A stretch of 64,000 bases of DNA. Origin: an uncultured Gammaproteobacteria bacterium. GTDB lineage: Bacteria; Patescibacteriota; Patescibacteriia; 2-12-FULL-57-11. The notes under the pieces were generated by a model, which was not told the DNA's origin, searched no databases, and worked only from the letters and a program-made list of their open reading frames with translations. Shown one piece after another: positions 20,146 to 55,308 of the stretch. The stretch is from assembly GCA_964648865.1 (NCBI GenBank), contig CAZYLV010000001.1, positions 84,509 to 148,508 on the forward strand, in the 5' to 3' direction. A program made the position numbers and the translations under genes. Position 1 is the first letter of the stretch. Each line of letters starts with the position of its first letter.

Positions 20146-23100
20146 CTACTCGTGCGGGTACACGATGATGTCCCCGGCGTATTCCGTGAATGGCGTATTG
20201 ACTCTGATGTTGCCGGGGGTTAGTGCGCACTCGTTCGTCGTCACTCCACCAGAAGTGAGCGTCGAATTTGTAAGCGCGTTGTAGCAGCTGCTGGCTGCAG
20301 TTCCACCCGGAGCGTCGCACGTCCCGTTGCAGAAGCCCCAGTTGTCCTGCACCTGGACGCGGGGACGATAGACGCAGGCCTCGCGGCCGTCCGGCTGCAC
20401 GCGCACGCAATTGTTGGTGCCGTCCCAGCAGCGGGCCGTGGGGTCGCTGGAGCAGATGTAGGCGTGGTTGTAGGCGAAGGGGGCGGTGCTGTCGCAGGCG
20501 TCCGAGGACGTGCCGAAGGTCGTGCCGTCGCAGCGGGACTGCAGCTCGCGTGCCTCGGTGCCGTCGGGACGTGTCGTGACACGGTACTCGTACCCGCGGC
20601 GGTTCTTGTAGCTGGAGTTGGGGTTGTTGCCCGAGGGATTGGTGCCGTCGCCCCAGTCCACGATGACGTTGCGGATGGGCATCTGATCGTTCTGGGCGTA
20701 GGCGAAGAAGCGGACCGAGACCTGCTTGAAGCCGTTGCCGCCCACGATGTCGCCCACCGACTGTCCGTTGACCGTGATGCGGTCCGTGGCGCCCTCGAAG
20801 CACTGGTTGCTGGTGTTGCAGCCTTCCACGGCGAGCACCACCGGCGGTTGGCCGACGATGTGCGACTCGTCGTAGACGAGCGACGCGGGATCGTAGTCCA
20901 CCTCGGCCGGCAGCGGCACGCCCGGCGCGAAGACGCGGTAGTCGGCGTTGACGTTGCTGTTGACGTCGGTGCGGTGATAGAGGAAGAGGCTCTGCGTGGC
21001 GGCGAAGAGCTGCCGGAGCCGCTCGAGCACGTACTCGAGGTTCGGCAGGCCTGTGCCGGCGGCGTCCGCGCCGTAGCTGCGGCAGGTGACCCCATCGACG
21101 TCGCAGACGCGGCCGGTACCGGTGCCGCTATTCTGGCAGATGCCCGCGGTCGGCCGCTCCGGATCGGTCGGCACGCAGCGCAGGTGCGCGCAATCGCTTT
21201 CGAAGACACAGGCGCGCGAACCGATGCTGCTGTCGGCGTTGACGCAGGTGCCGACGATCTCGCGGTCGTGCGGGTCGCTGCGGCGGCGCACGCCGTCAAT
21301 CGGCCAGCGGCTGTCACAGGCGCGCGGGCTGGTGGCCCAGGTGTCCACGCCGACCGGGCCCGGATCGACCGGCGTCGTGCAGAAGCCGGCGTTCAGGTCC
21401 ACGTTGAACTCGCAGGTGCCCAGGCCCAACCCCGGGCAGGGATCGGTACCGCCTGAGGGGACGGTGCAGCGCTGCAGGCAGGCGCGCACGCGGCCGCTGC
21501 CTTGGTCGCACTGGGGCTGGGACGCTCCGGGCGCGGCCGAGCAGGCCACGTCGCCGTCCTCGCCCACGGGGCAGGTGATCCCGGTGCCGCCCGCGGTGAT
21601 GGTGGCGTAGGGACGCGATTCGGCGTTGGAGACCTCCGTGGCACCGGCCGGGCAGGTGCCGCCCACGGTCGGCAGGTTATAGGCGCGTGTGCCGTCGACA
21701 CGGCAGGTGAGATGCTCGACCGGGCTGTAGTCGACGTTGGCAGCGGTCTGCTCGTCGATATTGGCCGTCACGGCGCGGCCGTAGGGCTGCAGCGCGTCCG
21801 GCGTCTGGGCCCAGGTGTAGCGCAACTCCGGCGTCTCCGTCCTGATGCCGATGGGGTCGGTGATGGTGTAACCCGCGCCAGGGGGCGTTGTGCGGCCGTT
21901 GCCCAGCCGCCCGGTGTAGACCTTGTTGAGCACCGGCGAACCGACGGTCGCCACGGTCACCGCGGCCTCGCAACCGAGGAACGGCGTGCCCGGGGAGTTG
22001 GGGCCGTCCGGGATGGGCGTGTCGAGGGCCACGCAGTCGGCGTAGTGTCCGAGCGCGCTGTCCGGCTCGATGCCGGTCGCGGTGATGGTCACGTCATCAT
22101 CCGGATAATCGAGCCCGGCGCTCTGCTTGAGCGTCTTCCCCTCAAGGAGCCAGACCTCGGCGTAGCTGGCCGGTGCCTGGATATAGGTCGGGATCTGCGC
22201 GGGCGTCACATAGCCGATGCCGTCTTCATCGCAGTGACTGGTGGTCGCCTGGTTGTACCGCTGCATCGGGAGACCCTGTTCGCGTGGCGGTTCGCAGGGC
22301 CGCTTGAGCGGGTCGGCCATGTGGCGCGAGTTGCGGGGCACGCAGATGTAGTGGTTGCCGGACTCGTATGTGGTGCGGCGGCCGGGGCAGTCCTCGACGC
22401 CGGCCGCATCGTGGGAGCTAGAAGGAACCCCGGCCATGACCACGAAGGCCTCGTCCGCCGGGCAGTCGCGCTCCGGGTTGCCCTGTTCGTCGTCGATGAG
22501 GATCTTGGGCTCAACACAGCCGCCCGACCCCGCCCTGCAGTAGGGCGTGCATTCGGGGATGACGTCCGAAAGGGTGTTCTCCGCGCAACCCATCACCACC
22601 GTGTAAGGATCGCCGCCTACCATGATGCTGTGGCTCGTGGTGTTGAACCGGGCGTAGGGTGCGATGCGCTTGTAGGCATCCGGCACGGCGCAATAGGCGG
22701 CGCCGGAGACGTTGAACCCGGCGTTGGGGTAATTGTTGTAGACGTCGACGTTGCCGGAGAGCCGGTCGACCGGCAGCCAGGTGATGCAGGCGCGGCCCGG
22801 CTGCTCGTAGCTGTGGTCCTGCAGCCCGTTGATGGAGAAACCGAGGTCGCGCTCCAGGCAGTAGCCCTCGATGCCCTGGACGGTGTTGACCCGGGAGATG
22901 GCGTTGCAGGTGCCGCCGGTGCCGCAGCTGGTGGCCGCGGACGGATCGCAATCCTGCTTGTCGCGCGGGCCGCCTTGGCAGAGGCCCGACGGAGGTGTCA
23001 CTTCGCTCACCGCGCTGCGGTAGATGGTGCCTTGTCCGCCCGTGTACTCGATCTTCTCGTAGGTGCACTCGCAATCCTGGCCGCGCTCGCAGAGCGTGGC

Positions 23101-26100
23101 GCGGTTGAAGCTCGGCGAGACGGTCTTCGGCAGGGAGCGGAGGAAGTCCGGCGTCGAGGTGGCCTTCCACTCGCGCACCACGGAATTGGGGAACGGCGCG
23201 TTGCGCTCCGGATAGGTGCGGCAGCTCGGCGCCTCGGTGTTCTGCTCGATCCCGAACGGGGTGAGCGGCAGCGGCTCGTCGCGCAGGACGGTGGCGGTCT
23301 CGACCGGCGAGCCGTACGGCGACTGGGCGCAGAACCCGCTCCAGCAGCGGCCGGTGCCGCGCGCCGGGAAGTCCGCGTTGTCGCAGGCGTCGCCGTCGAC
23401 GGCGGTCGCGTCGCATGCGCCGATGACCCGCGCCAGACGGAAGGTCGGCACCTGGTTGCAGAGCCCGACGCCGGCGCAGTCGGCGTCGCTCTCGCAGGCC
23501 CGCGTGGCGTCGTCCGTGCAGAAGCGGCCCACGGGGATCTGCCGCAGCGACTCGACGTCGTACATGTGCGGCACGGAGTAGCCGGAGTAATCGAGCGCGC
23601 CGTAGCCGGTCTCGCGCGACGCATAAGTCTCCGCGGTGAGGATGGTGGGTTCGCGGCTGACCCACCGGGTGCAGACGGAGGTGTCCCCCGACTTCTGGTA
23701 CTCGGCGCAGCGGCCGATGGCGTCGCAGATCTCGATGAAGCGGTTGCGGCTGGGGTCCCAGACCGGCGTCGAGCTCTGGCAGGCGAGCCACTCGCCGCAG
23801 ACACGGTCGCGGGTGACCTTCATGACCACGTTGGCGTCGTCCTGCGCCGGGGCGTAGAGCGCCTGGAAGTCCCCGAGGCTGACCTCCCGGCCGCGCCCGT
23901 CCAGGAAGCGGTCGGAGCACGTGCCGCCGCCGGCGAAGCGCGGTTCGCTGGGGCTGCCGTCCGCCGCCGGCAGCACGCAGGTGCCGGTCTCCCCCGCCTC
24001 GGCGTCCAAGCAATGTTCCGTGACGCTGCACGAGCCGCCCCAGCGGGCGCTGGTGCAGGTCGTGCCGCTGATGGTCGAACGGTAGAGGCACTGGCCGCAG
24101 CCGGCCGGCCCGCAGGTGACGGGCGCCGACGCGCCGCCGCGGACTTCCGCCGCCAGGTTGGAGACGTCGGCGCTCGAGCTCAGCACCGGGCTGCTGGTGT
24201 CGTTGAACAGCACGCAGCCGTCGAGCGGGTTGACCTGGTCGCGGCAGGTGGCCAGGTCGATCTTCTGGTTCTTGAGGTACGTGTAGGGGCGGCCGAGGGG
24301 CGCGGTGATGTCCTTGTCCGTGGGGTCGAGGAACTCCGTGCAGCTCGAGAACTGCGCGGGGCAGAGCCCGGCGAATCCGGCGTAGTCGACGTCGCCGTTG
24401 CGCCAGATGCCGTACGTCGCGCCGGAGATGACGTAGCTCCCGTCGCAGGGGATGTCCGTCCCCTTGCGGAACCAGCCGTCGTACTCGCGCGTCCCCACGC
24501 GCACCGTCTTGCGGTACTCGCAGGTACGGTCTTCCGGATCCTTGAAGTAGGCCTTGCCGGTGGTGATGCCGACCTCGGTCCATTCCTGGCAGCCCACGGC
24601 CTCGATGGTGCAGAGCGACTCGCCGTAGGTCTGCGGGTTGTTGAGCACCGGGACGTCGGCGTACGCCACGGCGGTGCCGGCCGGGTAGGGCTCGCGCCAC
24701 GGCAGCGGGGCGCGGCAGGCCGTCTCTCCCGCGGCGACGCGGCAGATGAGCTCGCCACCGACCGTGCAGTCGCAGGTGGTCGCGCCCGCGCCCGGCGTGC
24801 AGGCGTCCGGCGCGCTGTCGGCGTCGGCGCCGTCGGGCATGGTGCAGGTGCGGCCCGCCGGGTTGCCGGCCAAGGTGCAGCCGGCCTCGCCTTGGTCGCA
24901 CTCGTGCTCGCCGTCGTCGACGACGTAGACCGTGCGGTCGGCAGGCACGACCACGAGGTCCTGCGGCCGGCCGACGCACGTGCCGGGCGCGCCCAAGCGC
25001 ACCGGGACGCCGGTGCCGTCGACGATGGTCACCCCGTCCACCTGGCAGGTGCCGGCCGCGGCCATGGCAAAGGAGACGGCCAGCGGGACGTCGTCGGCGA
25101 CGTAGCGGCAGGAACGGCGGTTGACGCCGACCGTGCAGACCTCACGGCCGTCGACCGTGCAGGGCGTCGGCGCGGCGGCCGGAGCGGCCAGCACGCAGAG
25201 CGCGTTCCAGGACTCACGGCCCGGCGAGAGCGACTGCTGGGTCTGGACGAAGGCCGTGCAGCCCACCGCCTTCTCGCGGCACAGCGAGCTGAAGCCGGTC
25301 AGGTATTCCGTGCGCTCGGCCTTCTCGGCGCGGTACTCGGTGCAGCCGAGCTGGGCCTGCGGCAGGAAGGCGCCGGCGGCGTTCTGGTCGCAGACCGCGG
25401 GGATGGTCCAGCTGTCCTTGACGAGCGCGATGTTGGAGGCCACGCGGGTCAGCTCCACCCGGTCGATGAATGAGGTGTCCGTGAAGCCGGTGAAGACGAG
25501 CCGCTCGTCGGCAGCGGGCACCCAGTCCACCAGGACCGGCCCGAAGCTGTAGCGGTTCCAGGTGGCGCCGAGCGTCGCCCCGGCCGTGAAGGCCTGCTCC
25601 GGCCGCGCACCGGAGAAGCGCACGCCGACGGTGCCGCGGCCCTTTGCCCAGAACGTGAGGTAGTAGGTGTCGCCCTGGACGATGCGCGGATCCGCGACGA
25701 CGCCGCGCGTGAGCTCGGTGCCGGCGTCGACGCGCAGCGAGTGGCCGCCGACGGCGGTCGACTCGGTGGAGACGGCCGTCGCGGCGTCCGGCTGCCAGCC
25801 GTCGCGGCTGCCGCCCTCGAAGTCCCAGGAGGCCAGGCGGCGGACGTTGGCGCCGGCGTTGCCGGTGTAGAGCCGGCAGCCGGCCTCCGGCGCGCCGCAG
25901 GAGCGCGACTCGGGCGCGTAGGCGTTGAAGGTGCAGCCGAGGTCCGAGACGCTCGTCGAATTCCAGGTGCCGCCGATGCCTTCGCAGACGTTGCAGCGGC
26001 CGTCGACGAAGCGTCCGCCGCCGGCGCTGCAGGACGCGGCGTCGGTCGCGGCCGGATCCGTCGGCAGCTCCGTCATGCGCAGCGGCCGGCACTCCTCGGT

Positions 26101-29100
26101 GATGACGATGGTCCGCGAGTAGAGCCGGTAGGAGACGTTACCGGCGATGTCGAAGAACTCGCGGCAGTCGGGATTGGTGCCTGCGAGGTAGATCTCGCGC
26201 GTGCAGCTGGCGAGGTCCGTGCCGCGGATGACCTCGGGCGGACGTGCGCCGCCCGGCCCCACGGCCGCGCCGGCCTTGAGCCGCCATTCCTTGAGCTGGA
26301 AGCCGGTCGTATCCGAACCCTCCCAGGTGTAGTAGACGGGCACGGTCTCCCCCACCGCGGGCTTCTCGCAGGTCCGCAGCTGGGCGTAGTACTCACGGGC
26401 CTCGCCGCCGGCCGCGGCCAGGTCGAGGTTGGTGAACTCCGTGCAGCCCGCCGAGGCCACCGAGCAGGTGTCCCCGCGCTGCGGGATGAGGTGCACCGGA
26501 TAGCGGGCGAAGGACAGCGTGCTAGCTTCTTCCTTATAGGTGGCGTAGCCCGCGCAGACCGCCGGGCAGCGGTTCTCGTCGGCGACGATGCCGGGAACGG
26601 GCGTGCCGCCGGTCGAGGGCGTGTAGGCGTCGCAGCCGACCTCGTCCTGGCGGCAGATGCCGGCGTAGTCCTCGCAGCCCGGCGGGTCGGTGTCGCCGCC
26701 GGTGCATCCCAGCCAGGCCGGCGGCAGCGTGAGGTAGTCGCGGCTCGTGGTGGCGTAGGCGGTCGCGCGGAAGCCGCTCTCGAAGCGGCCGTACTCGAGC
26801 TGCACGGCGTCCACCTGGGCGCCGCTCGAGGAGGTCAGGGAGACCTCGACGAAGGCCGCCGCGGCCGGCGCGGTGAAGCTGCAGGCGGCGCGGGAGAAGA
26901 CCACGTCCGAATCCGGCGTCGCGGCGAGCGCCATGCCGGCGCAGGAGGTGTCTGAGGCCGGCACGCTGAGCGCCGTCCCGGCGGCATCGGTCACGCGCAG
27001 CTGGGCGAAGGCCCCGCCGACCGCGGCGCCGGAGGCCCAGCGTGCGTGGTAGGAAAAGGCGTACGTCTCACCCGGGTCGATGCCGATGACCTGGAGGAAC
27101 GGTCCCGCGCCCGGCACGACCGCGGCCGAACCGTCCTGGGCGTCGAAGAGGTCGGTGACGTAGGCGGCGGGCGCGCCGACCCAGGCGTCCGGGCGCGTGG
27201 CCGTCTGCTCGCGGGACTCGAAACTCGGGTTGCGCACGAGGTTCGCCTCGAGCCCCTCGCGCCGGATGAGCTCGGTGCAGCCCGCGGCCTGCGCGTCGCA
27301 GGTACCCGCGTCGCGGTCGAGGAAGAGGCGGCCTTGATCGGCGCGCCAGTCGCCGGTGTCGCCCGCGGGATCCTGCGCGGTGGCGTACCAACGGCAGCCG
27401 GCGTTCTCCACGGAGCAGATCCCCCGGTCGACGGTCGTGGTCAGCACCGAGAGGCTCCTGCCGCCCTGGCCCGCGTAGGTCTGGCAGCCGGCGTACTGCG
27501 CCGGGCAGCTGTCCCCCTCGATGCGCCAGACGTTGCGCTCGCGGGTGCAGTAGCCGTAGCCCGTGCCGCAGGTGCCGTCCGGGTTCTCGGCGATGCAGGT
27601 GGGCGCGTCCACGCAGACCTCGGAGCGGATGTCCGAATCGGCGGTGAGCAGCGTCGGTCCGTAGACCCGCGCCCGGCACTGGGTGACGGGGTACTTGATG
27701 ATCCAGTCCGGGTCGATGAGCTTGCAGAACTCCCCGTTGGGCCCGTCGCAGTCGTTGAAGGCGGAGACGACGTCGCCGAGCGTCGTGTCGGGATCGGCCT
27801 TCTCCGCGGCCAGCTCGAATCCGATGGGGATGATGCGCGCCTTGCGGAGCTTGATGAGGTTGGAGTAGCAGTAGGCGTTGGTGAAGCAATAGGGATCGGC
27901 GTTGCGCGAGGCGCCCTCGCCGGTCGGCGGCACGAGCGGCCAGTCGGCATGGAGGTACCCTTGTTGGATGGCCTGGCGGACGGTCAGCGGCTCGCCCTGG
28001 AGCGCGACACGCACCCCGGCGGCGAAACTCGGATCCATGACGCAGTTGTTGGGGCCGCGCAGCGTGTCCGGGCAGACGGTGAATTCGGCGACGGCGTCGT
28101 AGGAGGCGACCTCGGAGACGCGCGGCGCCAGCAGCCCGGCGAAGGCGGCACGGGCCGCGGCGCGGCCGCCGCGCACCACGCTCTCGGCGTCCGAGAGGTC
28201 CGGCGGACAGTTGAGCCCGGAGAGCGCCTCGCGGGAGTCGGGCACCGCGTCGCGGAAGGCGCAGGCCAGGTCGTAGCCGGTGGTCTCGAAGAGGCCGCCC
28301 TCGAAGGCGCTCTGCAGCAGGGTCGACGCCAGGGTGTTGACGAAGGTGCCGAGCGCCACGGTCAGCACCTGGATGACGCCCTTCGAAAGCACCGGACCGA
28401 TGACGGAGGCCGTGGACTGCTGCTGCTGGCCGCTCTGGCGCGCGGTCTGCTCGAGCGCGGTCTCGCGGATCACGGCGGCCGGCGTCTTCTGGCGGCCGGT
28501 GACGATGTCGGTGACCGCCTTGAAGCCGTCGCCCTCCTCCCGCTCCAGCTTGCTGATGAGCTCCTGCGCGCTGACCTTCTCCTTGACCTTGAGCGGCGCC
28601 TGGAAGAGCGCCGACAGGCCGGTCTGTCCGGGACCCACGGAGACCTGGATGTTGCGCAGGATGGCGCCGGTCTCGAAGCTCGTCGTGAACTGGTCCCACG
28701 ACTGGGCGATGTCGCTCCACTCGCACTTCGGCTCCGGCGACTGGTACTGGGAAGCGATGCCCAGCTGGACGGCCAGGTTGATGCGCGGGGCGTCCGGTCC
28801 GGACGGTTCGCACAGGTTGAACCCCAGGAAGCCGATCTCCGAGAACGTGCCGATGGCCTCGCCGGCCGCGCCGAGCGCGACGTCCGAGAGGTAGGCGCCG
28901 AAGTCCTTATATTGGAAAAGCGTGCCCTGGCCCTTGCCGCCGGAGGCGATGTAGACGGCGGCGTCGTAGGCGATCTTCTGCGCGAAGTAGTTGATGGCGT
29001 TGATGAAGGCCATGGTCACGCCGCCGAGGAGCACCTTGTCCAGGAAGTCCTCGACGTTGTTGATGGTGGTGTTGGCGCCGGTCACCGGATCGGTGACGAC

Positions 29101-29205
29101 CATCTGGGCGCGCGCCGTGCGCGGGACGAAGAGCCCCGCCGACCCCAAGAAGAGGGTCAGCGAGAGCAGGAACGCCGCGGATGTTTTTCGCGCGCGTGGC
29201 GACAT
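20146..29205 (-). CDS. giant secreted Cys-rich cell-surface protein (3019 aa)
   Basis: N-terminal signal peptide (AFLLSLTLFLGSAGLFVPRTARAQ). Composition is rich in Gly/Thr/Cys/Asp/Pro throughout, with many CxxC and C-x-G-x-C patterns. No TM helix after the signal peptide. It is coupled to the upstream gene, with GAGG located 9 nt before the ATG. Confidence 0.7.
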   Translation of the reverse strand: MSPRARKTSAAFLLSLTLFLGSAGLFVPRTARAQMVVTDPVTGANTTINNVEDFLDKVLLGGVTMAFINAINYFAQKIAYDAAVYIASGGKGQGTLFQYKDFGAYLSDVALGAAGEAIGTFSEIGFLGFNLCEPSGPDAPRINLAVQLGIASQYQSPEPKCEWSDIAQSWDQFTTSFETGAILRNIQVSVGPGQTGLSALFQAPLKVKEKVSAQELISKLEREEGDGFKAVTDIVTGRQKTPAAVIRETALEQTARQSGQQQQSTASVIGPVLSKGVIQVLTVALGTFVNTLASTLLQSAFEGGLFETTGYDLACAFRDAVPDSREALSGLNCPPDLSDAESVVRGGRAAARAAFAGLLAPRVSEVASYDAVAEFTVCPDTLRGPNNCVMDPSFAAGVRVALQGEPLTVRQAIQQGYLHADWPLVPPTGEGASRNADPYCFTNAYCYSNLIKLRKARIIPIGFELAAEKADPDTTLGDVVSAFNDCDGPNGEFCKLIDPDWIIKYPVTQCRARVYGPTLLTADSDIRSEVCVDAPTCIAENPDGTCGTGYGYCTRERNVWRIEGDSCPAQYAGCQTYAGQGGRSLSVLTTTVDRGICSVENAGCRWYATAQDPAGDTGDWRADQGRLFLDRDAGTCDAQAAGCTELIRREGLEANLVRNPSFESREQTATRPDAWVGAPAAYVTDLFDAQDGSAAVVPGAGPFLQVIGIDPGETYAFSYHARWASGAAVGGAFAQLRVTDAAGTALSVPASDTSCAGMALAATPDSDVVFSRAACSFTAPAAAAFVEVSLTSSSGAQVDAVQLEYGRFESGFRATAYATTSRDYLTLPPAWLGCTGGDTDPPGCEDYAGICRQDEVGCDAYTPSTGGTPVPGIVADENRCPAVCAGYATYKEEASTLSFARYPVHLIPQRGDTCSVASAGCTEFTNLDLAAAGGEAREYYAQLRTCEKPAVGETVPVYYTWEGSDTTGFQLKEWRLKAGAAVGPGGARPPEVIRGTDLASCTREIYLAGTNPDCREFFDIAGNVSYRLYSRTIVITEECRPLRMTELPTDPAATDAASCSAGGGRFVDGRCNVCEGIGGTWNSTSVSDLGCTFNAYAPESRSCGAPEAGCRLYTGNAGANVRRLASWDFEGGSRDGWQPDAATAVSTESTAVGGHSLRVDAGTELTRGVVADPRIVQGDTYYLTFWAKGRGTVGVRFSGARPEQAFTAGATLGATWNRYSFGPVLVDWVPAADERLVFTGFTDTSFIDRVELTRVASNIALVKDSWTIPAVCDQNAAGAFLPQAQLGCTEYRAEKAERTEYLTGFSSLCREKAVGCTAFVQTQQSLSPGRESWNALCVLAAPAAAPTPCTVDGREVCTVGVNRRSCRYVADDVPLAVSFAMAAAGTCQVDGVTIVDGTGVPVRLGAPGTCVGRPQDLVVVPADRTVYVVDDGEHECDQGEAGCTLAGNPAGRTCTMPDGADADSAPDACTPGAGATTCDCTVGGELICRVAAGETACRAPLPWREPYPAGTAVAYADVPVLNNPQTYGESLCTIEAVGCQEWTEVGITTGKAYFKDPEDRTCEYRKTVRVGTREYDGWFRKGTDIPCDGSYVISGATYGIWRNGDVDYAGFAGLCPAQFSSCTEFLDPTDKDITAPLGRPYTYLKNQKIDLATCRDQVNPLDGCVLFNDTSSPVLSSSADVSNLAAEVRGGASAPVTCGPAGCGQCLYRSTISGTTCTSARWGGSCSVTEHCLDAEAGETGTCVLPAADGSPSEPRFAGGGTCSDRFLDGRGREVSLGDFQALYAPAQDDANVVMKVTRDRVCGEWLACQSSTPVWDPSRNRFIEICDAIGRCAEYQKSGDTSVCTRWVSREPTILTAETYASRETGYGALDYSGYSVPHMYDVESLRQIPVGRFCTDDATRACESDADCAGVGLCNQVPTFRLARVIGACDATAVDGDACDNADFPARGTGRCWSGFCAQSPYGSPVETATVLRDEPLPLTPFGIEQNTEAPSCRTYPERNAPFPNSVVREWKATSTPDFLRSLPKTVSPSFNRATLCERGQDCECTYEKIEYTGGQGTIYRSAVSEVTPPSGLCQGGPRDKQDCDPSAATSCGTGGTCNAISRVNTVQGIEGYCLERDLGFSINGLQDHSYEQPGRACITWLPVDRLSGNVDVYNNYPNAGFNVSGAAYCAVPDAYKRIAPYARFNTTSHSIMVGGDPYTVVMGCAENTLSDVIPECTPYCRAGSGGCVEPKILIDDEQGNPERDCPADEAFVVMAGVPSSSHDAAGVEDCPGRRTTYESGNHYICVPRNSRHMADPLKRPCEPPREQGLPMQRYNQATTSHCDEDGIGYVTPAQIPTYIQAPASYAEVWLLEGKTLKQSAGLDYPDDDVTITATGIEPDSALGHYADCVALDTPIPDGPNSPGTPFLGCEAAVTVATVGSPVLNKVYTGRLGNGRTTPPGAGYTITDPIGIRTETPELRYTWAQTPDALQPYGRAVTANIDEQTAANVDYSPVEHLTCRVDGTRAYNLPTVGGTCPAGATEVSNAESRPYATITAGGTGITCPVGEDGDVACSAAPGASQPQCDQGSGRVRACLQRCTVPSGGTDPCPGLGLGTCEFNVDLNAGFCTTPVDPGPVGVDTWATSPRACDSRWPIDGVRRRSDPHDREIVGTCVNADSSIGSRACVFESDCAHLRCVPTDPERPTAGICQNSGTGTGRVCDVDGVTCRSYGADAAGTGLPNLEYVLERLRQLFAATQSLFLYHRTDVNSNVNADYRVFAPGVPLPAEVDYDPASLVYDESHIVGQPPVVLAVEGCNTSNQCFEGATDRITVNGQSVGDIVGGNGFKQVSVRFFAYAQNDQMPIRNVIVDWGDGTNPSGNNPNSSYKNRRGYEYRVTTRPDGTEARELQSRCDGTTFGTSSDACDSTAPFAYNHAYICSSDPTARCWDGTNNCVRVQPDGREACVYRPRVQVQDNWGFCNGTCDAPGGTAASSCYNALTNSTLTSGGVTTNECALTPGNIRVNTPFTEYAGDIIVYPHE

Positions 29206-43360: not shown

Positions 43361-43675
43361 TCAAGAGGTCGCTCCTCGACGCTCGAGACGCTCATAGCTG
43401 CCGCGAAGCGCAGCGATTTCGCTCTCGTGGCGGTTCGCGAGGACCAAAAAATCATCCATCCGGTTGAACGTCCGCTCGTGCCGATGTTCCAGTGTCGTCA
43501 GCCGGCCCTCGATCCCGTCCAAGCGGTGGTCGTTATCGACCAGACGGATCTCGATCCTGTCCAGGCGCTTTTCCACGCCATCGAACCGGTTGTCGACCGC
43601 CGCGAATCCGCCCGCGACCACTAGCGCAAAATCATCGAACTTCTTGTCCAGATACCGCTTCGTCTCCGTATCCAT
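43361..43675 (-). CDS. hypothetical small coiled-coil protein
   Basis: 104 aa. Heptad-like repeats RLDRIEIRL and RLDGIEGRL. Lower GC than its neighbours. Confidence 0.45.
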   Translation of the reverse strand: MDTETKRYLDKKFDDFALVVAGGFAAVDNRFDGVEKRLDRIEIRLVDNDHRLDGIEGRLTTLEHRHERTFNRMDDFLVLANRHESEIAALRGSYERLERRGATS

Positions 43676-43753
43676 ACGTCCCTATGGTACACGAGCCGTC
43701 GACACCAAGACGACCTGCGGTGTCTTGTCAATCCCACCACCTGTGGATGACCG

Positions 43754-44242
43754 CTACGGATACCGCCTGCGGTCCAACAGGTAATCGGAGATGTACTCCT
43801 TCCACCGCGCGCGCTGGTCCCTTGTCAGGTCCTTATAGCACCCGAGCTTTCCGGTGCAGCTCGGCGCGCCGCAGGCACAGCGACGGTCCTTTGCGGAGAG
43901 TTCGTCCCCGTAGCCGTACCCCAAGAACCCGTAATGCGTGACCACCTCCTCACCAGGCGCGATGTCCCGCATTGCCACGAACCACGTACGGTAACGGATG
44001 CCGACGTTCGGCTCGCACGAGTGGCAGATGTACTGGCAGAGATTGCCCTTCGGCAAGCGGGGTTCGATCTTCAGTTCGTGGTCGACGGGAATCGTATATG
44101 CGGTCGCCTCACCGACAAGCGGACCGAAGGCGACGAACACGAGGTCACCCTTCTTGAAGGCGCGCCTGGCGAAGAGACTTTTCCCATAGGGAGGCCGATG
44201 CTTGGCGATGACGTTATCCTCGATCCGATAACGCCTAGGCAT
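43754..44242 (-). CDS. SET domain protein (putative protein lysine methyltransferase)
   Basis: Core motifs CHSCEPN (NHSCxPN-like), EEVVTHYG (ELTxDY-like) and post-SET CACGAPSCTG. N-SET-like GKSLFARRAFKKGDLVF. The start was trimmed to MPRRYRIED. It overlaps the upstream gene by 8 nt. Confidence 0.75.
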   Translation of the reverse strand: MPRRYRIEDNVIAKHRPPYGKSLFARRAFKKGDLVFVAFGPLVGEATAYTIPVDHELKIEPRLPKGNLCQYICHSCEPNVGIRYRTWFVAMRDIAPGEEVVTHYGFLGYGYGDELSAKDRRCACGAPSCTGKLGCYKDLTRDQRARWKEYISDYLLDRRRYP

Positions 44243-44999
44243 CCCAGCGGAACGTCTCAATATCGATGCGGGAGAAATCATAGAGCTTCTTCGCCACGAG
44301 GTCGTAGTAATGGTTCTGGTACACGTTGCGCGGATTCCGATACCCCAAGAAGTCCTTTTGGAACAGGTAGGTTTCCGTTCGCAACGGCCCCCCGGGATAG
44401 CACAACAGCACCCAATCTTGGCGATGCTGGATGAATTCGTTGGGGAAGGAAGCCTTCCCCTTGGCGATGAGGTAAAAGAGGACGCTCTCTTCCAGGATGA
44501 ACTGCTGATGTTGCCGCAAGGGACGTTCCGCGACCGCCATGGCATCCGCCCGCACGAACGCGCGCAGCCGCGCATCGCTCTTCATCAGTTCCCGCGCCCT
44601 CTGCATGGCCAACGGGTACTCCCGGGTCTGAAGCAAGAGTTCCCCCCACGTCATGAAGGAGAACGCCTTCCGCACGTACAAGGCGCTTTTCTCCACTGCC
44701 CGCTCGATGCCGAACTTGTGCGCGAACATCTGTCCGAGATACCGCTCACGCGCTTTCGCCGGCGGATCCTTCTCGGTGAGCATGTAGAGGTAATCGGCGT
44801 ACAGCGTCGTCAAGCCGACACCCTCCGTCCTCTTGATCTTATGGTACAGGGGTTCGAGGTGCCTCATGCAGGCTGCCGGACTCTGGGAGTTCCCGATGCG
44901 GGACATCGAGATGCCGAAGACCAGCATGCCGTGCTCTGACGGAAACTGGTTGATGTCGTAGAACTCGTTGCGTTTGAGCATATGTCCTAGGTGGCCCAC
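44235..44999 (-). CDS. hypothetical protein, possible cyclodipeptide synthase (CDPS)-like fold
   Basis: VFGIS at residues ~28-31, a YLIAK segment at ~176-180, and LLCYP with Tyr ~201 followed by Pro. These positions mirror the CDPS GxS / Y178-E182 / Y202-P203 (XYP-type) layout, but Glu182 is not evident. The start is either GTG 44999, overlapping the cysS stop, or ATG 44981. Lower GC than the surrounding genes. Confidence 0.5.
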   Translation of the reverse strand: MGHLGHMLKRNEFYDINQFPSEHGMLVFGISMSRIGNSQSPAACMRHLEPLYHKIKRTEGVGLTTLYADYLYMLTEKDPPAKARERYLGQMFAHKFGIERAVEKSALYVRKAFSFMTWGELLLQTREYPLAMQRARELMKSDARLRAFVRADAMAVAERPLRQHQQFILEESVLFYLIAKGKASFPNEFIQHRQDWVLLCYPGGPLRTETYLFQKDFLGYRNPRNVYQNHYYDLVAKKLYDFSRIDIETFRWDA

Positions 45000-46414
45000 G
45001 GATCCCGCTGCCAGACGGTGCCGCCCGGCGTGTTGCGCACCTCGATCCCCCGCTTCTGCAGGTCGGCGCGCAGTGCATCGGCCGCGGCAAAATCCTTGGC
45101 GGCCCGCGCCGCCTCCAGCTGCTCCAATAGCGCCGATTCCTCGGCCGAGAGCGGACGCTTAGCAGCGGCGCGCCACAGCGGCAGCCCGGCATCAATGACG
45201 CCGAATACTTGATCGGCCTCCGACAGAATCTGCCGCAGCACTCCTGCGTCGCCGCGCGAGAGCCCCGGACGCTCGGCGTGCTTCACGACATCAAATACCG
45301 CCGCGGCTGCGGCCGGCGTGTTGAGGTCATCATCCATGGCCGCGACGATGGCGGCACGCGCCGAGACGGCGATCTTCGCCGTCTCGGCATCATCGACCGC
45401 ATCGCTCCTGGCCTCGAGCGCCTCGAGTCGATCAGCCGCGGCGAGCAACCGCGCCAGCGCGCTCTTGGCCGCGGGCATGGAATCGTCCGTGAAGCTAAGC
45501 GGGCTGCGGTAGTGCGAACTCACGATGAGCCAACGGAAGGCCAGCGCCTCGAGATCGCTCTTGGCGACGTCAGCGAGGGTCAGGACGTTACCCACGCGCT
45601 TGGCCATCTTCTCCCCGCTCATCGTGAGGAAGCCGCGGTGGAACCAATACTTCACGAAGGGATGCTTGCCGGTGACGCCCTCGGCCTGCGCGATCTCGTT
45701 GGTGTGGTGCGGGAAGACCAGGTCGGCGGCGCCGGTATGGATGTCGATCCGGTCGCCGAGATGCCGCCGGATCATGGCCGAGCACTCGATGTGCCAACCC
45801 GGCCGCCCCTTCCCGAGCGGCGTCTCCCAATACACCGGACCGTCCTCCTCCTTCCAGCACTTCCAGAGCACGAAGTCCTCGACCGCGTCCTTGTCGTAGT
45901 CGTCGCTGTCGATGCGGTGCTTGACCGGCGCCTTCTTGCGCTTGGCGAGGCCGGCGAGCGCGCCGTAGCCCGGGAACTTCGCGATGGCGAAATACACGGA
46001 CCCGTCCTTCTCGTACGCCAAGCCCTTCTCGAGCAGCACCTGGATGTCCGCGACCATGGCCTCGATGTTCTTGGTGGCATGCACGATGGTCGGGAGCACG
46101 ACGTTCAGCCGCCGCAGGTCCTCGCGGAAGAGCGCTTCGTACGTGGCCGTGAACTCGGCAAGAGGCAATCCGGCCTCGGCAGCGCCGCGGATGGTCTTGT
46201 CGTCCACGTCGGTGATGTTCATGACGTGGTCGACGGCGAAGCCGGACGCCGTGAGCCAGCGCTTGAGCACGTCGGCCGCCAGGAAGGACGAGAGGTTGCC
46301 GATGTGGGCGACGTTATAGACCGTCGGGCCGCAGGTGTACATCGTCACGCGCTCGCCGAGCTGACGGAAGTCCTCCTTGGTGCCGGAGGCGGTGTTGAAG
46401 AGACGGAGCGGCAT
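44987..46414 (-). CDS. cysS: cysteine--tRNA ligase
   Basis: CGPTVYNVAHIGN (HIGH-type), KMAKRVGN (KMSKS-type) and a Zn-binding Cys context. GGAGG SD 9 nt upstream of ATG 46414. The track's upstream extension is junk. Confidence 0.9.
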   Translation of the reverse strand: MPLRLFNTASGTKEDFRQLGERVTMYTCGPTVYNVAHIGNLSSFLAADVLKRWLTASGFAVDHVMNITDVDDKTIRGAAEAGLPLAEFTATYEALFREDLRRLNVVLPTIVHATKNIEAMVADIQVLLEKGLAYEKDGSVYFAIAKFPGYGALAGLAKRKKAPVKHRIDSDDYDKDAVEDFVLWKCWKEEDGPVYWETPLGKGRPGWHIECSAMIRRHLGDRIDIHTGAADLVFPHHTNEIAQAEGVTGKHPFVKYWFHRGFLTMSGEKMAKRVGNVLTLADVAKSDLEALAFRWLIVSSHYRSPLSFTDDSMPAAKSALARLLAAADRLEALEARSDAVDDAETAKIAVSARAAIVAAMDDDLNTPAAAAAVFDVVKHAERPGLSRGDAGVLRQILSEADQVFGVIDAGLPLWRAAAKRPLSAEESALLEQLEAARAAKDFAAADALRADLQKRGIEVRNTPGGTVWQRDPWAT

Positions 46415-48503: not shown

Positions 48504-48580
48504 TGGTGGGCCCTCTCCGATTCGAACGGAGGACCTTCTCGGTGTAAACGAGACGCTCTGGACCGCTGAGCTAAGGGCCC
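48504..48580 (-). tRNA. tRNA-Val (anticodon TAC)
   Basis: Folded by hand. Acceptor GGGCCCT/AGGGCCC, D-stem GCTC/GAGC, anticodon stem TCTCG/CGAGA with loop TTTACAC, T-arm CTCCG-TTCGAAT-CGGAG, discriminator A and encoded CCA. 77 nt. Confidence 0.85.
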
Positions 48581-50821: not shown

Positions 50822-50906
50822 TGGTGGGCCGAGAGGGACTCGAACCCTCAAGCCTTGCGGCACACGCCCCTCAAACGTGCGCGTATACCAGTTCCGCCAC
50901 CGGCCC
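50822..50906 (-). tRNA. tRNA-Leu (anticodon GAG), type II with long variable arm
   Basis: Folded by hand. Acceptor GGGCCGG/TCGGCCC with one G-U. Anticodon stem CACGT/GCGTG, loop TTGAGGG. Variable arm TGCCGCAAGGCTT. T-arm GAGGG-TTCGAGT-CCCTC. Discriminator A, encoded CCA. 85 nt. Confidence 0.8.
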
Positions 50907-51711: not shown

Positions 51712-52134
51712 CTAGGGCTCCAGCTTGGCGGGCCGGCTGCGCAGCGCCGCGGGCGCTTCCGGCTCGGGCGCCGGACGCTCGGCGGGAGCGCCGCCCATGG
51801 CGCAGCGGCCGTTCATCACGGCGCCGGCCTCCATGACCATGACCTTGGCGCGGATGTCGCCGGTCACGCGCGCCGTCGCCGAAAGCTCGATGCGGTCCGA
51901 GGCAGTGACGTTGCCGACGACCTCGCCGGCGATGCGCGCGCTGCGCGCCGAGACGTCGGCCGTGATCTTGGCGTCCGGCCCGACGATCAGGTCCATGGCC
52001 GTCTTGAGCGTGCCGGAGACCTCGCCGTCGATGACGATGTTGCCCGCGGAGACGAAGTCGCCCTCCACCTTGACGCCGGCGGCGATGACGGTGTCGGTGC
52101 CTGCGGACTCGGTGCGTGCCGGTTGCTTGAACAT
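51712..52134 (-). CDS. bactofilin family cytoskeletal protein
   Basis: Repetitive beta-helical pattern of G/V/I triads (VKVEGDFVSAGNIVIDGEVSGT...IVGPDAKITADV...IAGEVVGNVTA). Pro/Ala-rich tail. The start was trimmed to MFKQPA. Confidence 0.7.
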   Translation of the reverse strand: MFKQPARTESAGTDTVIAAGVKVEGDFVSAGNIVIDGEVSGTLKTAMDLIVGPDAKITADVSARSARIAGEVVGNVTASDRIELSATARVTGDIRAKVMVMEAGAVMNGRCAMGGAPAERPAPEPEAPAALRSRPAKLEP

Positions 52135-52185
52135 AGCGGGGATCACAGCGTGATGCCCGCAGTATACCAACCGCCCCGGCAGGGC

Positions 52186-53793
52186 TCAAACGCGGCCGGC
52201 GGGGATGCGGAACCCGAAGGTCGAACCCTTGCCCGGCCCGGGGCTTTCCACGAAGACGCCGCCGCCGTGGGCCTCGATCAGGGTCTTGGCGATATAGAGG
52301 CCGAGCCCCGAGCCGTGGGAGATCTTGAGCCCGCCGCCGGCACGCACGAACTTGGCGAAGAGCTTGGGGACCTCCTCCTTCTCGATGCCGATGCCGGTGT
52401 CCGTGACCCGCACCTCGACCGTCCTTCCGGGCACGACCGTCGTCTTGATGGTCCCCCGCTCCGTGTACTTGAGGGCGTTCTCGACGAGGTTGAAGAGGAC
52501 GTTCCTGAGCTTCTCCTTGTCCGCCTTGAGCGGCACGCGCTTCACCGGGCAGGAGACGACGAGCCGGATGCGCTTGCGGTCCGCCGTGAGCTTGAGCTCC
52601 TTGTAGATGTCGCGGACCATCGCGCAGACGTCGACCGGCACCTTCTGGAGGTCGATCTTCCCGGCCTCGAGACGCGTCACGTTGAGGAAGGTCTCGATGA
52701 CGTGCAGCGTGTGGTTGAGCGAGTCCAGGTTGAGGTCGAGCAGGTCGTGGACCTTGTTGGGCAGCTTGCCGAAGTCGCCCTCGCGCAACATGGAGAGGTA
52801 GCCGCGCACGCCCCCGATCGGCGCCCGCAGCTGGTGGCTGGCGATGGAGACGAAGTTGGACTTCATCTCGGAGAGCTCCTCGAGCTTTTCGTTAGCAATA
52901 CTGAGGTCGTCCGCGAGCTTCTGAATCTCTTCTCGACGACGGACCTCGTCGCGAACGCTACGAATGAGTTGCAGCGCAAAGAAAACCGTGACGACCAGTC
53001 CGGAAATGCGCAACGCGAGTTCCGCGGATGTCCGAGAGGACCCTACCTCCACGACGTAAATAAGCACGACCGCCATCGCAAAGAGCTCGGCAGCTACGAT
53101 CTTCAGCGAGAGCAGGCGATGTCTGATGATTGCCACGGCTGTAAAGCCCACCATGAAGACAGTCCACGCCGGACCGACGTTCTGGAGGTCATAATTGCCG
53201 GTGAAGAACGGGATGAATATCTGCGTCGCAATGGCCAACACCACGGTGAATACCCACCCGATGGCGAAATACGAAATCTGCAATCGACGCATATCCCCCG
53301 CCGAAAGGCGGCGGTACTTCCAGACCAGTCGGAGGATGCTATACACCGCAAAAAAGACGCAATGCACGATGAAAAGCCCATAAAGTGGACCGAAGACAGT
53401 GACGCGTTCCAAACCCTTAATGATTTCCGCGCCGTCAACCAACGGGGTGAACTGCGTTAGAACGACCAACGCTGCGGTCCACAGGCTGATGAGCCAAAAC
53501 CGCCGTTGCGGGACGGCGTGGTTCTCCTCCGGAAATACCTCCACGAACAATGCGAGGAAGTAAAAAATCAGTTCCGCAAAAACGAAATTCAGTTTCCCCA
53601 GTTCATATACGACCGTGGGGTCGGTCAGCTGGTAAAAGAAATACAACGTTAGAATCCAAAACGCGATGGAAAAGACGAAGAGGACGAAGTACCGACGAAC
53701 GCGCGCTTTCGGCCGGCCAAAAAAAACGAGCACTCCCAACGCGATGTTGATCGCGAAGGAAAAGAACTGGATGACTTGAAAAACGATTTCCAT
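52186..53793 (-). CDS. sensor histidine kinase with 7TM N-terminal sensor domain
   Basis: Seven hydrophobic helices. H-box ASHQLRAPIGG. N-box LVENALKYT. G-boxes DTGIGIE and GSGLGLY. The N-terminal third is AT-rich relative to the window. Confidence 0.8.
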   Translation of the reverse strand: MEIVFQVIQFFSFAINIALGVLVFFGRPKARVRRYFVLFVFSIAFWILTLYFFYQLTDPTVVYELGKLNFVFAELIFYFLALFVEVFPEENHAVPQRRFWLISLWTAALVVLTQFTPLVDGAEIIKGLERVTVFGPLYGLFIVHCVFFAVYSILRLVWKYRRLSAGDMRRLQISYFAIGWVFTVVLAIATQIFIPFFTGNYDLQNVGPAWTVFMVGFTAVAIIRHRLLSLKIVAAELFAMAVVLIYVVEVGSSRTSAELALRISGLVVTVFFALQLIRSVRDEVRRREEIQKLADDLSIANEKLEELSEMKSNFVSIASHQLRAPIGGVRGYLSMLREGDFGKLPNKVHDLLDLNLDSLNHTLHVIETFLNVTRLEAGKIDLQKVPVDVCAMVRDIYKELKLTADRKRIRLVVSCPVKRVPLKADKEKLRNVLFNLVENALKYTERGTIKTTVVPGRTVEVRVTDTGIGIEKEEVPKLFAKFVRAGGGLKISHGSGLGLYIAKTLIEAHGGGVFVESPGPGKGSTFGFRIPAGRV

Positions 53794-53794
53794 G

Positions 53795-54589
53795 CTACGT
53801 GACTGCCGCTTCCCAGGACGCGAGATCCATGGCCTTCAGACGCTCGACGTCCTTCCCTGGCACCGCTGCGGCGGCGAGGTGGATGTACGGAAGGAAAGTG
53901 AGCGCACAGCCGGTCTGCCCCTCCTGGACGGCGTGGCTGCGCACGGCCACAAACACCTCCTTCAACCTCGACCCCTGTTGACGCGCGACGACCTGCGTGC
54001 TGCGCGCGCATTGCTTCATGAGATCCCGTTCGTCGGGCGTATTCCCGACGCCCGCCCCGACGTCCTCCATGAGAATGTTCGCGCGGTCGTTCCCCTCTTC
54101 CACGATGCCGATTGCGGCTACAGCATACACCCAACCCGGCCCGGTGTGATAGACGTCTTTGAGGGCAACGGGGGTATGCGAACCGGGAAAGATTGGGAAA
54201 CGCGGGTGGTGCACGGTCCCAAAAAGCGACCGGGTGGCGCGGAGCAGTGGGTCGGCGGAGTACACCGGAACGGGCCTCTCGGGCTGGTGAAGCAGAAACA
54301 GCGGGTCGTTCGCAGCGGACGCGCGCGCGAGGTGATACCCCCAGATCAGCCCGTTGGGTCCGCTGAACGACGACACGGTCATCGCATTCAATTGCCCCAC
54401 GTTCGTTTCCGAAACCTCGGCTGCATCAAAGGCGCAGATCCGCCTCAAATTCTCGGACGTGATGCCCTCTGCCGCAACAGACGCTGCCGCCACATGTATC
54501 GCCAGGACGTATGGTCCGCGATGCGTGTACCCCGCACAGGAACGTTCGTACGGAAGAAGAAAGTTGTCCTCCAGTCGTTCCCCCTTCAT
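53795..54589 (-). CDS. pyruvoyl-dependent decarboxylase proenzyme-like protein (HdcA family-like)
   Basis: NAMTVSSFSGPNG at residues ~68-80 resembles the Ser-Ser self-cleavage site of pyruvoyl histidine decarboxylase. The start was trimmed to MKGERLED. The stop lies 1 nt from the HK start. Confidence 0.4.
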   Translation of the reverse strand: MKGERLEDNFLLPYERSCAGYTHRGPYVLAIHVAAASVAAEGITSENLRRICAFDAAEVSETNVGQLNAMTVSSFSGPNGLIWGYHLARASAANDPLFLLHQPERPVPVYSADPLLRATRSLFGTVHHPRFPIFPGSHTPVALKDVYHTGPGWVYAVAAIGIVEEGNDRANILMEDVGAGVGNTPDERDLMKQCARSTQVVARQQGSRLKEVFVAVRSHAVQEGQTGCALTFLPYIHLAAAAVPGKDVERLKAMDLASWEAAVT

Positions 54590-54596
54590 ATGTGAG

Positions 54597-54622
54597 AAAA
54601 AAATCGGGGCGTTGCCCGCCCC
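54597..54622 (-). terminator. rho-independent terminator
   Basis: GGGGCG-ggcaa-CGCCCC followed by GATTTTTTT on the minus strand. It ends 7 nt before the ATG at 54589. Confidence 0.5.
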
Positions 54623-54627
54623 TCGGC

Positions 54628-55308
54628 TCACCTCTCCTTCTTCGCTTTCGCCTCGGCGAGCAACGAGACGGGATCGCTCGCCAACCGCTCCACGAGCCAC
54701 ATCGGCTTTCCGCCGACGACGACGATGTCCATCGAATCCTGAAATTCGTAGACGAGGTCGTACCCCACGACTTCCCGCACGATCCGCCAGAGCCTCGCCT
54801 TGCGCGACGTCCAGAGGTAGGTGTACGAGGCACCCGCAGCCGCCGCGAACCGGTAGACGGGTAACGCGGTCCGGAAGACAGCGTCGAGACCGGTCCGATA
54901 CGCAGCACGTACCCCGAACTCCCGGGCTGACATCACAGTCCCCTGCGGATCGGCACCGCACCGCACGAGAGCCGCAGCGAGACCTCTCCGATGCTCGGCG
55001 GTCGCGAGCCCCGGCGGGAACTCCCGCTCCTCCGTCGCACGGTCGATCGTGTCGACGTACCCAAGACACAGTGCCCGCACGATGCACGTGTCCCCCTCCT
55101 GATGGTAGAGGAAATGCATCAGTGCGGGATGCGGATCGAGTCGGGCTTGCGCTGTGAACTTGCGAGCGACGTCCTCGTCGGTCCACGTTTCTCCCCAGCC
55201 GCCCTCACCTGTTTCGGTAAAGAGCTCGACGTAGGCCTGCAGGAAGGTGCTGCGGAACCGCGGAGATGCAAGCACCTCAGGCAGCGTCAGAACAATCGAT
55301 TGCTCCAT
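54628..55308 (-). CDS. hypothetical protein (226 aa)
   Basis: Clean ORF. No motif recognised. An AT-richer intergenic region lies upstream. Confidence 0.5.
   Translation of the reverse strand: MEQSIVLTLPEVLASPRFRSTFLQAYVELFTETGEGGWGETWTDEDVARKFTAQARLDPHPALMHFLYHQEGDTCIVRALCLGYVDTIDRATEEREFPPGLATAEHRRGLAAALVRCGADPQGTVMSAREFGVRAAYRTGLDAVFRTALPVYRFAAAAGASYTYLWTSRKARLWRIVREVVGYDLVYEFQDSMDIVVVGGKPMWLVERLASDPVSLLAEAKAKKER

Follow-up and report, generated by a model that had tools for sequence, protein, structure and literature searches.

The gene directly behind cysS in the window (the whole 64,000-nucleotide stretch of DNA that was analysed) most likely encodes, judging from sequence comparison and a predicted structure, a very divergent relative of the XYP-type cyclodipeptide synthases (CDPSs), which would work as an aminoacyl-tRNA-dependent peptide-forming enzyme. 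The SET-domain methyltransferase encoded next to this protein, here called X, serves both X and canonical CDPSs as their dedicated partner. Taken together, the unannotated X and its SET point to a small-molecule pathway not yet described. The features of the region, in the order in which they are transcribed, are the following.

44987..46414, reverse strand: cysS, cysteine-tRNA ligase (TIGR00435 match, E 7.5e-119)
44982..44986, reverse strand: 5-nt spacer, gacat, from the cysS stop to the ATG of X, read from the sequence
44235..44981 (248 aa) or 44235..44999 (254 aa), reverse strand: gene X, predicted CDPS-like protein with the catalytic set Ser31, Asp69, Phe167, Glu171 and Tyr201-Pro202 and the basic helix 78-106
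44235..44242, reverse strand: overlap of the X stop and the SET start, ATGCCTAG, read directly from the sequence
43754..44242, reverse strand: SET-domain SAM-dependent methyltransferase, 162 aa, with a post-SET Cys cluster (PF00856, E 9e-12)
43361..43675, reverse strand: coiled-coil protein, 104 aa, within the low-GC stretch (weak coiled-coil matches; GC3 0.74)

The TAG stop of cysS occupies positions 44989-44987. X may begin at GTG 44999, which produces a 13-nt overlap with cysS, or at ATG 44981, 5 nt past the cysS stop; the earlier note, made from the sequence alone, had stated that X overlaps or abuts this stop, and one or the other is seen with each start. Independent gene calls choose ATG 44981 (248 aa), in agreement with the N-termini of the family; residue numbers in this text are those of the 254-aa ORF. 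The gene order and the 8-nt overlap of X with SET described in that note are borne out by the sequence, as ATGCCTAG holds both the X stop TAG (44237-44235) and the SET start ATG (44242). This overlap is consistent with translational coupling. SET ends at 43754, and 78 nt separate it from the coiled-coil ORF (43675..43361), for which only sub-threshold matches were obtained (DUF7310, EzrA and a PHROG coiled-coil match). X and SET make up a two-gene cassette of about 1.2 kb. A scan for terminators and promoters found nothing convincing inside the cassette and no convincing terminator between the genes, and the cassette, directly behind cysS, is probably co-transcribed with it.

The AF2 model of X (pLDDT 93) presents a Rossmann fold like that of class Ic synthetases, which a structure search places nearest to solved CDPSs. 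The top 43 Foldseek matches of this model are all CDPSs, with E values down to 9e-8, and the superposition covers only about 185 of the 254 residues; the earlier note had proposed comparing a model with the CDPS fold. The known proteins closest to X are XYP CDPSs, above all ParcuCDPS, the cyclo(His-Pro) synthase of Parcubacteria RAAC4_OD1_1 (PDB code 7QB8); 9GUN, 5MLQ and 5OCD are close as well. Class Ic synthetases themselves (TyrRS, TrpRS) give lower structural scores than CDPSs, and X has neither a HIGH nor a KMSKS motif, as read from the sequence, nor an anticodon-binding domain.

Profile alignment by hhalign of 62 X sequences with 112 canonical CDPSs yields a probability of 69.5% (E 4.2e-5) and pairs residues 69-153 of X with 72-153 of AlbC over the central 82 columns; helix 78-106 of X aligns with the AlbC helix 81-108. 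Against only four NYH-type CDPSs the register is sensible and the probability, 0.3%, is not significant. In global mode (probability 7%) the alignment pairs S31, N37, D69, F167 and E171 of X with S37, N40, D68, Y178 and E182 of AlbC, respectively; about 10 extra residues in X put the Y-P region out of register. PF16715, the Pfam family against which the earlier note wished X to be checked, matches neither X nor any of the 62 family members, and X is not a member by threshold. TIGR04539 matches X with 14 bits (E 0.027; cutoff 45) and gives a weak match in only 3 of the 62. Searches of PDB chains with X alone or with the 62-sequence profile retrieved no CDPS; the matches obtained, flotillin and dCTP deaminase with E values no better than 0.2, are noise, and the scattered, sub-threshold Pfam matches among the 62 members (DUF5753, DUF1959, Glypican) were ascribed to chance. 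PADLOC and PHROGs return nothing for X or SET, so nothing hints at a role in defence or in phage biology. Of the earlier reading of X as an XYP CDPS, the part that stands is the fold together with the conserved Ser31 and Tyr201-Pro202; membership by the PF16715 or TIGR04539 threshold does not.

Residues of X and CDPSs are equated by the alignments and by where they lie along the secondary-structure elements and, for Tyr201-Pro202, by the motif (vLCY-P versus vLCY-H) and the strand position. The motifs named in the earlier note are all present, VFGIS containing Ser31, LLCYP containing Tyr201-Pro202 and YLIAK containing Tyr176. In the predicted structure Ser31 follows strand 24-30 in a G-I-S motif, and Tyr201-Pro202 lies at the end of strand 196-201. 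The catalytic Glu, which the note had not found evident, is present as Glu171; the note had anchored on Tyr176. By alignment, F167-I-L-E-E171 is the equivalent of AlbC Y178-x3-E182, and it matches ParcuCDPS Y167-ILE-E171. Among 107 unique homologues, Ser31 is found in 107, Glu171 in 106, Tyr201 in 106, Pro202 in 104 and Asp69 in 100, in sequences of just 28-47% identity. Position 167 is aromatic in 107 of 107 (Phe in 104, Tyr in 3), which puts Phe at the AlbC Y178 position in 97% of the family; XYP CDPSs with a Tyr-to-Phe exchange retain activity (PMC7613923). In the 62-member alignment, His replaces Pro202 in four sequences. Helix 78-106 is basic, with Lys or Arg in at least 95% of sequences at positions 84, 86, 95 and 104 and a mean net charge of +4.2. 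In CDPSs, a long helix with a basic patch binds the tRNA acceptor arm.

X shares with XYP CDPSs the Rossmann-type, class-Ic-synthetase-like fold, a size of about 230-250 aa, a G/A-I-S motif after the first strand, an Asp after the second (compare the Ser/Asp dyad of ParcuCDPS), the aromatic-ILE-E helix motif, Y-P at a strand end and a basic helix where CDPSs bind tRNA. The ParcuCDPS motifs mirrored in X are AIS26LGN, IAD58, Y167ILEE171 and Y191P. X also has in common with XYP CDPSs its occurrence in CPR bacteria and a downstream gene of the same SET subfamily. In contrast to XYP CDPSs, with which it has only 10-20% identity, X falls below the Pfam and TIGRFAM thresholds, carries Phe at the Y178 position, and has three extra residues past G-I-S and about 10 extra between Glu and Y-P; its conserved N-terminal (FFDINKLP) and C-terminal (NPKN-YEN-YDL) motifs are missing from CDPSs.

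The X family is rare (235 representatives among 1.84 billion), and its hosts are mostly CPR bacteria and DPANN archaea, which are ultra-small symbionts. The surroundings of the cassette differ in every genome, the flanking genes being unrelated between loci, and median GC is 37% at the loci in its other hosts; for these two reasons horizontal acquisition of X and SET, as proposed in the earlier note, is plausible. The lower-GC stretch described there is confirmed by the GC and GC3 values. Positions 43361-44999 have a GC content of 59.4% versus 67.9% for the whole window and fall among the lowest 4.6% of 1640-bp windows. The GC3 of X, SET and the coiled-coil gene is 0.82, 0.79 and 0.74, respectively, against a median of 0.89 (SD 0.064) for 30 window genes. 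The dip, though real, is moderate at about 1-2 SD, and the window has two more low-GC stretches, near 17.3-21 kb and near 52-55 kb.

The SET protein has the PF00856 profile match, the SET fold, the (N/C)HSCxPN and catalytic Tyr motifs and the post-SET Cys cluster, and its gene belongs to a tight subfamily. In the 10 loci examined for this subfamily, the upstream neighbour is X in eight and a canonical PF16715 CDPS in two; the orthologues behind the canonical genes are 57-59% identical to the SET of the window. X and SET are also fused in at least five proteins (P0004, P0007, P0098, P0106 and L034). The fusions and the strict adjacency identify SET as a genuine functional partner of X, as the earlier note had supposed; that SET pairs strictly with CDPS-type genes speaks for a substrate other than protein lysine. 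Characterised SET enzymes nearly all methylate proteins. In databases the SET homologues carry the purely inferred label "protein-lysine N-methyltransferase". The window's SET has its best structural match in BurB (PDB code 9L4T), a Burkholderia SET-domain methionine S-methyltransferase that acts on free methionine (PMC12542666). Of 80 informative non-redundant groups, 19 have a GNAT acetyltransferase (PF00583) adjoining X, 3 have both SET and GNAT and 43 have neither, so X does not need a partner. A Gly29/Glu209 signature in X tracks with having one. Canonical CDPS clusters likewise place a co-transcribed modifier gene (class-I methyltransferases, P450s, cyclodipeptide oxidases) directly behind the synthase; X-SET departs from them in having a SET-domain (class V) methyltransferase, or a GNAT, as the modifier, and the pair also exists as a single fused protein. 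We found no description of SET or GNAT as a CDPS partner in the searchable literature.

On balance we lean slightly towards a model in which X and SET form a horizontally mobile two-gene cassette, X making a cyclodipeptide as XYP CDPSs do and SET methylating the product. The cassette would have happened to land directly behind cysS in a high-GC genome. The analysis shows the fold, the conserved catalytic residues and the partnership; for tRNA use, ring formation and the methylation target we infer the following course. X would bind aminoacyl-tRNA through the basic helix 78-106, and the aminoacyl group would be moved onto Ser31, polarised by Asp69, with the aromatic ring at position 167 packing against the aminoacyl moiety. 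Glu171 may help to couple a second aminoacyl-tRNA, giving the dipeptidyl-enzyme, and Tyr201 may assist cyclisation to the diketopiperazine. SET would use SAM to methylate a nucleophilic side-chain atom of this product, a role that GNAT might take over or add to in other lineages. The nature of the partners, SET and/or GNAT, suggests a free amine-type group on the product, for instance a Lys- or His-type side chain.

We consider it rather unlikely that X would use aminoacyl-tRNA and stop after one transfer, aminoacylating a non-tRNA acceptor (a protein lysine, an N-terminus or a small molecule) whose same target site or new free alpha-amine SET or GNAT would then modify; this would be protein or metabolite modification and not a diketopiperazine pathway. 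Other synthetase-like enzymes, SbzA among them, do take one aminoacyl group from tRNA and attach it to an acceptor that is not a peptide (PMC9437257). SET and GNAT (PF00583) classically modify primary amines, mostly on proteins, and the family-specific N- and C-terminal elements of X could bind a different acceptor. However, Glu171 and Tyr201-Pro202, which in CDPSs serve the second coupling and cyclisation, are almost invariant, and canonical, ParcuCDPS-like CDPSs are paired with this SET subfamily too.

Pseudoenzymes normally lose catalytic residues, and the near-invariance of the nucleophile Ser, Asp, Glu and Tyr-Pro at 28-47% identity makes it very improbable that X is catalytically dead and, binding tRNA or a ligand, serves SET or GNAT as an accessory subunit for targeting or regulation. 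The failure of X in CDPS sequence profiles and the Phe in place of Tyr178 would fit such a subunit, but over half of X genes are without a nearby partner and the Tyr-to-Phe change leaves XYP CDPSs active (PMC7613923). Least probable of all is a pathway coupled to Cys-tRNA or cysS, with a functional role for the position behind cysS, such as supplying Cys-tRNA to X: the 5 nt from the cysS stop to the X start without a terminator between them, and the tRNA-related neighbours at other loci (MetRS in L003, ProRS in L036, a GatB/E-like gene in L024, a free-standing ThrRS editing domain in L026), speak for it, whereas these neighbours are all different and occur in about 4 of 39 genome loci (by estimate roughly chance for small genomes), the cassette flanks are otherwise unrelated between loci, and cysS stands next to X in this genome only. 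Among the fetched loci, cysS lies beside X nowhere except in L040-L042, short read-assembly contigs of this genome with the same sequence; the cysS link and cysS-CDPS synteny of the earlier note find no counterpart elsewhere, and cysS was rejected as a module member since the adjacency is not conserved. The coiled-coil gene, considered as a third member, was also rejected, no homologue standing beside X in L001-L039.

CPR bacteria and DPANN archaea are thought to be almost without secondary metabolism. We raise as a tentative possibility that they carry an unrecognised branch of tRNA-dependent peptide synthases, missed by PF16715, and that tailoring of its product by SET and/or GNAT would give a diketopiperazine, methylated or acetylated and probably cationic, for symbiont-host interaction, with Gly29/Glu209 as a specificity switch. 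The cassette would be a clean example of a cross-domain mobile unit common to episymbiotic bacteria and archaea. To our knowledge, the SET fold has until now been seen to act on proteins and on a single free amino acid. The evidence for a SET devoted to CDPS-type partners lies in the adjacency, 10 of 10 loci, and in the fusions, at least five proteins; such an enzyme would carry SET chemistry over into the tailoring of natural products. Profiles of the PF16715 and TIGR04539 type find CDPSs but miss the X family, so tRNA-dependent peptide synthesis may be under-counted, notably in CPR bacteria and DPANN archaea.

The window carries X, an unannotated CDPS-like gene (CDPS, cyclodipeptide synthase), behind cysS and in front of SET, a SET-domain methyltransferase gene. 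Every gene from cysS to the coiled-coil gene lies on the minus strand.

46414..44987, minus strand: cysS (TIGR00435, E 7.5e-119; PF01406, E 5.5e-94)
ATG 44981 to TAG 44237-44235, minus strand: X, 248 aa, start MLKRNEFYDINQF
44242..43754, minus strand: SET, 162 aa, PF00856
43675..43361, minus strand: coiled-coil ORF, 104 aa, 78 nt from the end of SET

The cysS product ends in ...QRDPWAT before a TAG at 44989-44987, and five bases (gacat) separate this stop from the ATG of X. The 254-aa ORF from GTG 44999, used in the earlier note and kept here for residue numbering, overlaps cysS by 13 nt; the ATG start was chosen when genes were called independently on three short contigs of identical sequence, and it is consistent with N-termini across the X family. 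X ends in FRWDA before its TAG, and the ATG of SET at 44242 falls within ATGCCTAG, which gives the 8-nt overlap of the two genes that the earlier note had read. GC is 59.4% at 43361-44999 vs 67.9% for the window (bottom 4.6% of equal-sized windows), and GC3 is lower in X (0.82), SET (0.79) and the coiled-coil gene (0.74) than the median of 0.89 (SD 0.064, 30 window genes). From these figures and the gene layout, the earlier observation of a lower-GC stretch behind cysS is thus correct; the dip is moderate, and the window has two further low-GC stretches. Other features of the window are as follows.

16582-19251, minus strand: 889-aa ORF, MopE-type metal-binding motif, sub-threshold M23 peptidase
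20146-29205, minus strand: giant ORF, 3019 aa, weak Pfam match only, to carbohydrate-binding CBM_4_9
48504-48580: tRNA Val-TAC
50822-50906: tRNA Leu-GAG
51950-55300: third low-GC stretch, GC down to 0.52
52186-53835: histidine kinase with a 7TM sensor, in the third low-GC stretch

The 889-aa ORF sits in the second low-GC stretch and has the lowest GC3 (0.71) among the window's larger genes, and a 226-aa ORF in the third has no Pfam match. Ultra-small bacteria commonly encode very large surface-type proteins of the kind that the 3019-aa ORF would give. These two tRNA genes are the only ones found in the window, 27 of its 30 confident genes are on the minus strand, and its YidC is the short 262-aa form.

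X has no Pfam family match at threshold, and sequence and profile searches with it retrieve no PDB chain. Its sole suggestive profile match is TIGR04539, tRNA-dependent cyclodipeptide synthase (14 bits, E 0.027; cutoff 45). The homologues form 65 clusters (35-47% identity, about 245-250 aa), none with a Pfam domain over the X region, and the family is rare: out of 1.84 billion representatives, an exhaustive profile search gave 235 at E 0.001 or lower, and many of these are fragments. One homologous protein, P0067 (525 aa), has its X domain at 283-524 after about 280 residues without a Pfam match, which would be a further fusion partner or else an artefact of gene calling. The AlphaFold2 model, built from an alignment of 62 X-family sequences (pLDDT 93, pTM 0.90), predicts a cyclodipeptide synthase fold, and its best 43 Foldseek matches are all CDPS chains (E 9e-8 to 9e-4). 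About 65 residues fail to superpose on CDPSs, including the conserved N-terminal FFDINKLP and C-terminal NPKN-YEN-YDL motifs. Neither a HIGH nor a KMSKS motif could be read in the X sequence. X falls short of the curated profile and is for that reason placed outside PF16715, despite a predicted structure and catalytic residues that largely agree with those of CDPSs.

The catalytic residues were equated through alignments and secondary-structure position in the model, not coordinates. With hhalign, the 62-sequence alignment matched 112 full-length canonical CDPSs, all PF16715 (probability 69.5%, E 4.2e-5), pairing X 69-153, a long basic helix with the next strand and helices, with AlbC 72-153 (sequence checked against PDB 3OQV). 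Global alignments of X and AlbC pair G-I-S31 with G-I-S37, N37 with N40, D69 with D68, and F167-I-L-E-E171 with Y178-V-L-A-E182. The canonical ParcuCDPS has AIS26LGN, IYIAD58, Y167ILEE171 and Y191-P where X has GIS31MSRIGN, LYAD69, F167ILEE171 and Y201-P202. CDPSs conserve a Ser, a Glu and two Tyr residues, Asp58 pairs with the Ser in a dyad, and a Tyr167Phe mutant is still active (PMC7613923). Among 107 unique X sequences, Ser31 occurs in 107, Glu171 and Tyr201 in 106 each and Pro202 in 104; position 69 is Asp in 100 and Glu in six, and position 167 is Phe in 104 and Tyr in three. In the model, C-terminal strand ends hold Ser31, Asp69 and Tyr201 and helix 162-179 holds Glu171, a predicted placement that suits an active site of the Rossmann type. 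Helix 78-106, which corresponds to the tRNA-binding helix of CDPSs, has Lys or Arg at 84, 86, 95 and 104 in at least 95% of sequences and a mean net charge of +4.2.

SET is a complete SET domain of 162 aa (PF00856, E 9e-12; model pLDDT 94) with invariant H74-S75-C76-x-P78, Tyr104 and post-SET cysteines C122, C124 and C129. Its subfamily is tight (78 proteins, 45-70% identical, about 155-165 aa). The upstream gene was inspected for seven members on longer contigs. In two of the seven (the P0363 locus and locus L043) the gene immediately upstream, on the same strand, is a canonical PF16715 CDPS, that of L043 being nearest to ParcuCDPS (E 5e-28); in the other five (L044-L048) the upstream gene belongs to the X family (hmmsearch E between 1e-92 and 1e-104, varying with the run). 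Counting the window and loci L001 and L002, SET is preceded by a CDPS-type gene in 10/10, while the genes flanking the pairs differ between loci (e.g. DNA polymerase I, pyruvate kinase, HIT protein, ParB). The two are also fused, always X then SET, in P0004, P0007, P0098, P0106 and at L034 (424 aa). SET is a dedicated partner of X and also of canonical CDPSs, which bears out the methyltransferase partner proposed earlier. No match to a defence-system or phage family was found for X or SET.

By record title, the 39 species-representative genomes with X comprise 18 CPR/Patescibacteria, 16 DPANN or unclassified archaea, a Micavibrio, two uncultured Gammaproteobacteria, one Bacillota and one unclassified bacterium. 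Adding 80 further metagenome loci gave 97 non-redundant X loci; the neighbours of X in the 80 informative groups are these.

SET only: 18/80, biased upward by five groups (L044-L048) picked via the SET search
GNAT only: 16/80
SET and GNAT: 3/80
neither: 43/80

The GNAT is a distinct small acetyltransferase (PF00583). Three-gene modules, X-SET-GNAT at L088:729-2360 and GNAT-X-SET at L107:2558-4169, show that one partner does not simply replace the other and that both can work together. When X sequences are ordered by neighbour joining, those linked to SET cluster apart from those linked to GNAT, and the window X falls among the SET-linked. A canonical CDPS gene lies within about 1-1.1 kb of X in two archaeal lineages that are not redundant with each other (L008:5989-8251, same as L073, and L077:1316-3723; CDPS-profile E 3e-20 and 1e-9), both types there sharing a neighbourhood.

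The evidence best supports a mobile X-SET cassette. In this reading X would be a divergent enzyme of the CDPS type, catalytically competent, that takes aminoacyl-tRNAs as substrates and forms diketopiperazines, and SET would tailor its product, the presumed methyl acceptor, as the GNAT would elsewhere. The main rival is that X transfers a single aminoacyl group to a protein or metabolite, which SET and GNAT would modify as well. That X is a dead enzyme is unlikely. The catalytic Glu that was not evident to the earlier note (YLIAK) had been sought from Tyr176, not position 167, and Glu171, aligned to E182 and conserved, is therefore present. A functional cysS link, as proposed earlier, is also unlikely; among the loci fetched, cysS adjoins X only in this genome (L040-L042 are identical sequence). 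Other tRNA-related neighbours are few, each in a single locus and different each time (MetRS, L003:4457-6004; ProRS, L036:6773-8023; GatB/E-like, L024:4569-5963; a free-standing archaeal-type ThrRS editing domain, PF08915, L026:6440-6856). The coiled-coil gene was rejected as a module member because it has no counterpart beside X at other loci.

We found no description of the X family or of CDPS-SET pairing in full-text literature outside subscription journals. Across host loci of X, the median GC is 37% and the highest 58%; the window genome, at 68%, is the highest-GC host seen and unusually GC-rich for an X-SET carrier. This GC contrast is consistent with acquisition and later, partial amelioration. 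Gly29 with Glu209 (codons at about 44913-44915 and 44373-44375, minus strand) occurs in 35/39 partner-linked X and in 9/46 partner-less X with adequate flanks, 21 of which have Pro29 with Gln209, an association confounded by phylogeny and a lead only. From the sequences, this difference may be a specificity switch: an acidic residue just past Y-P would fit a cationic substrate, and SET and GNAT both modify amine-type nucleophiles.
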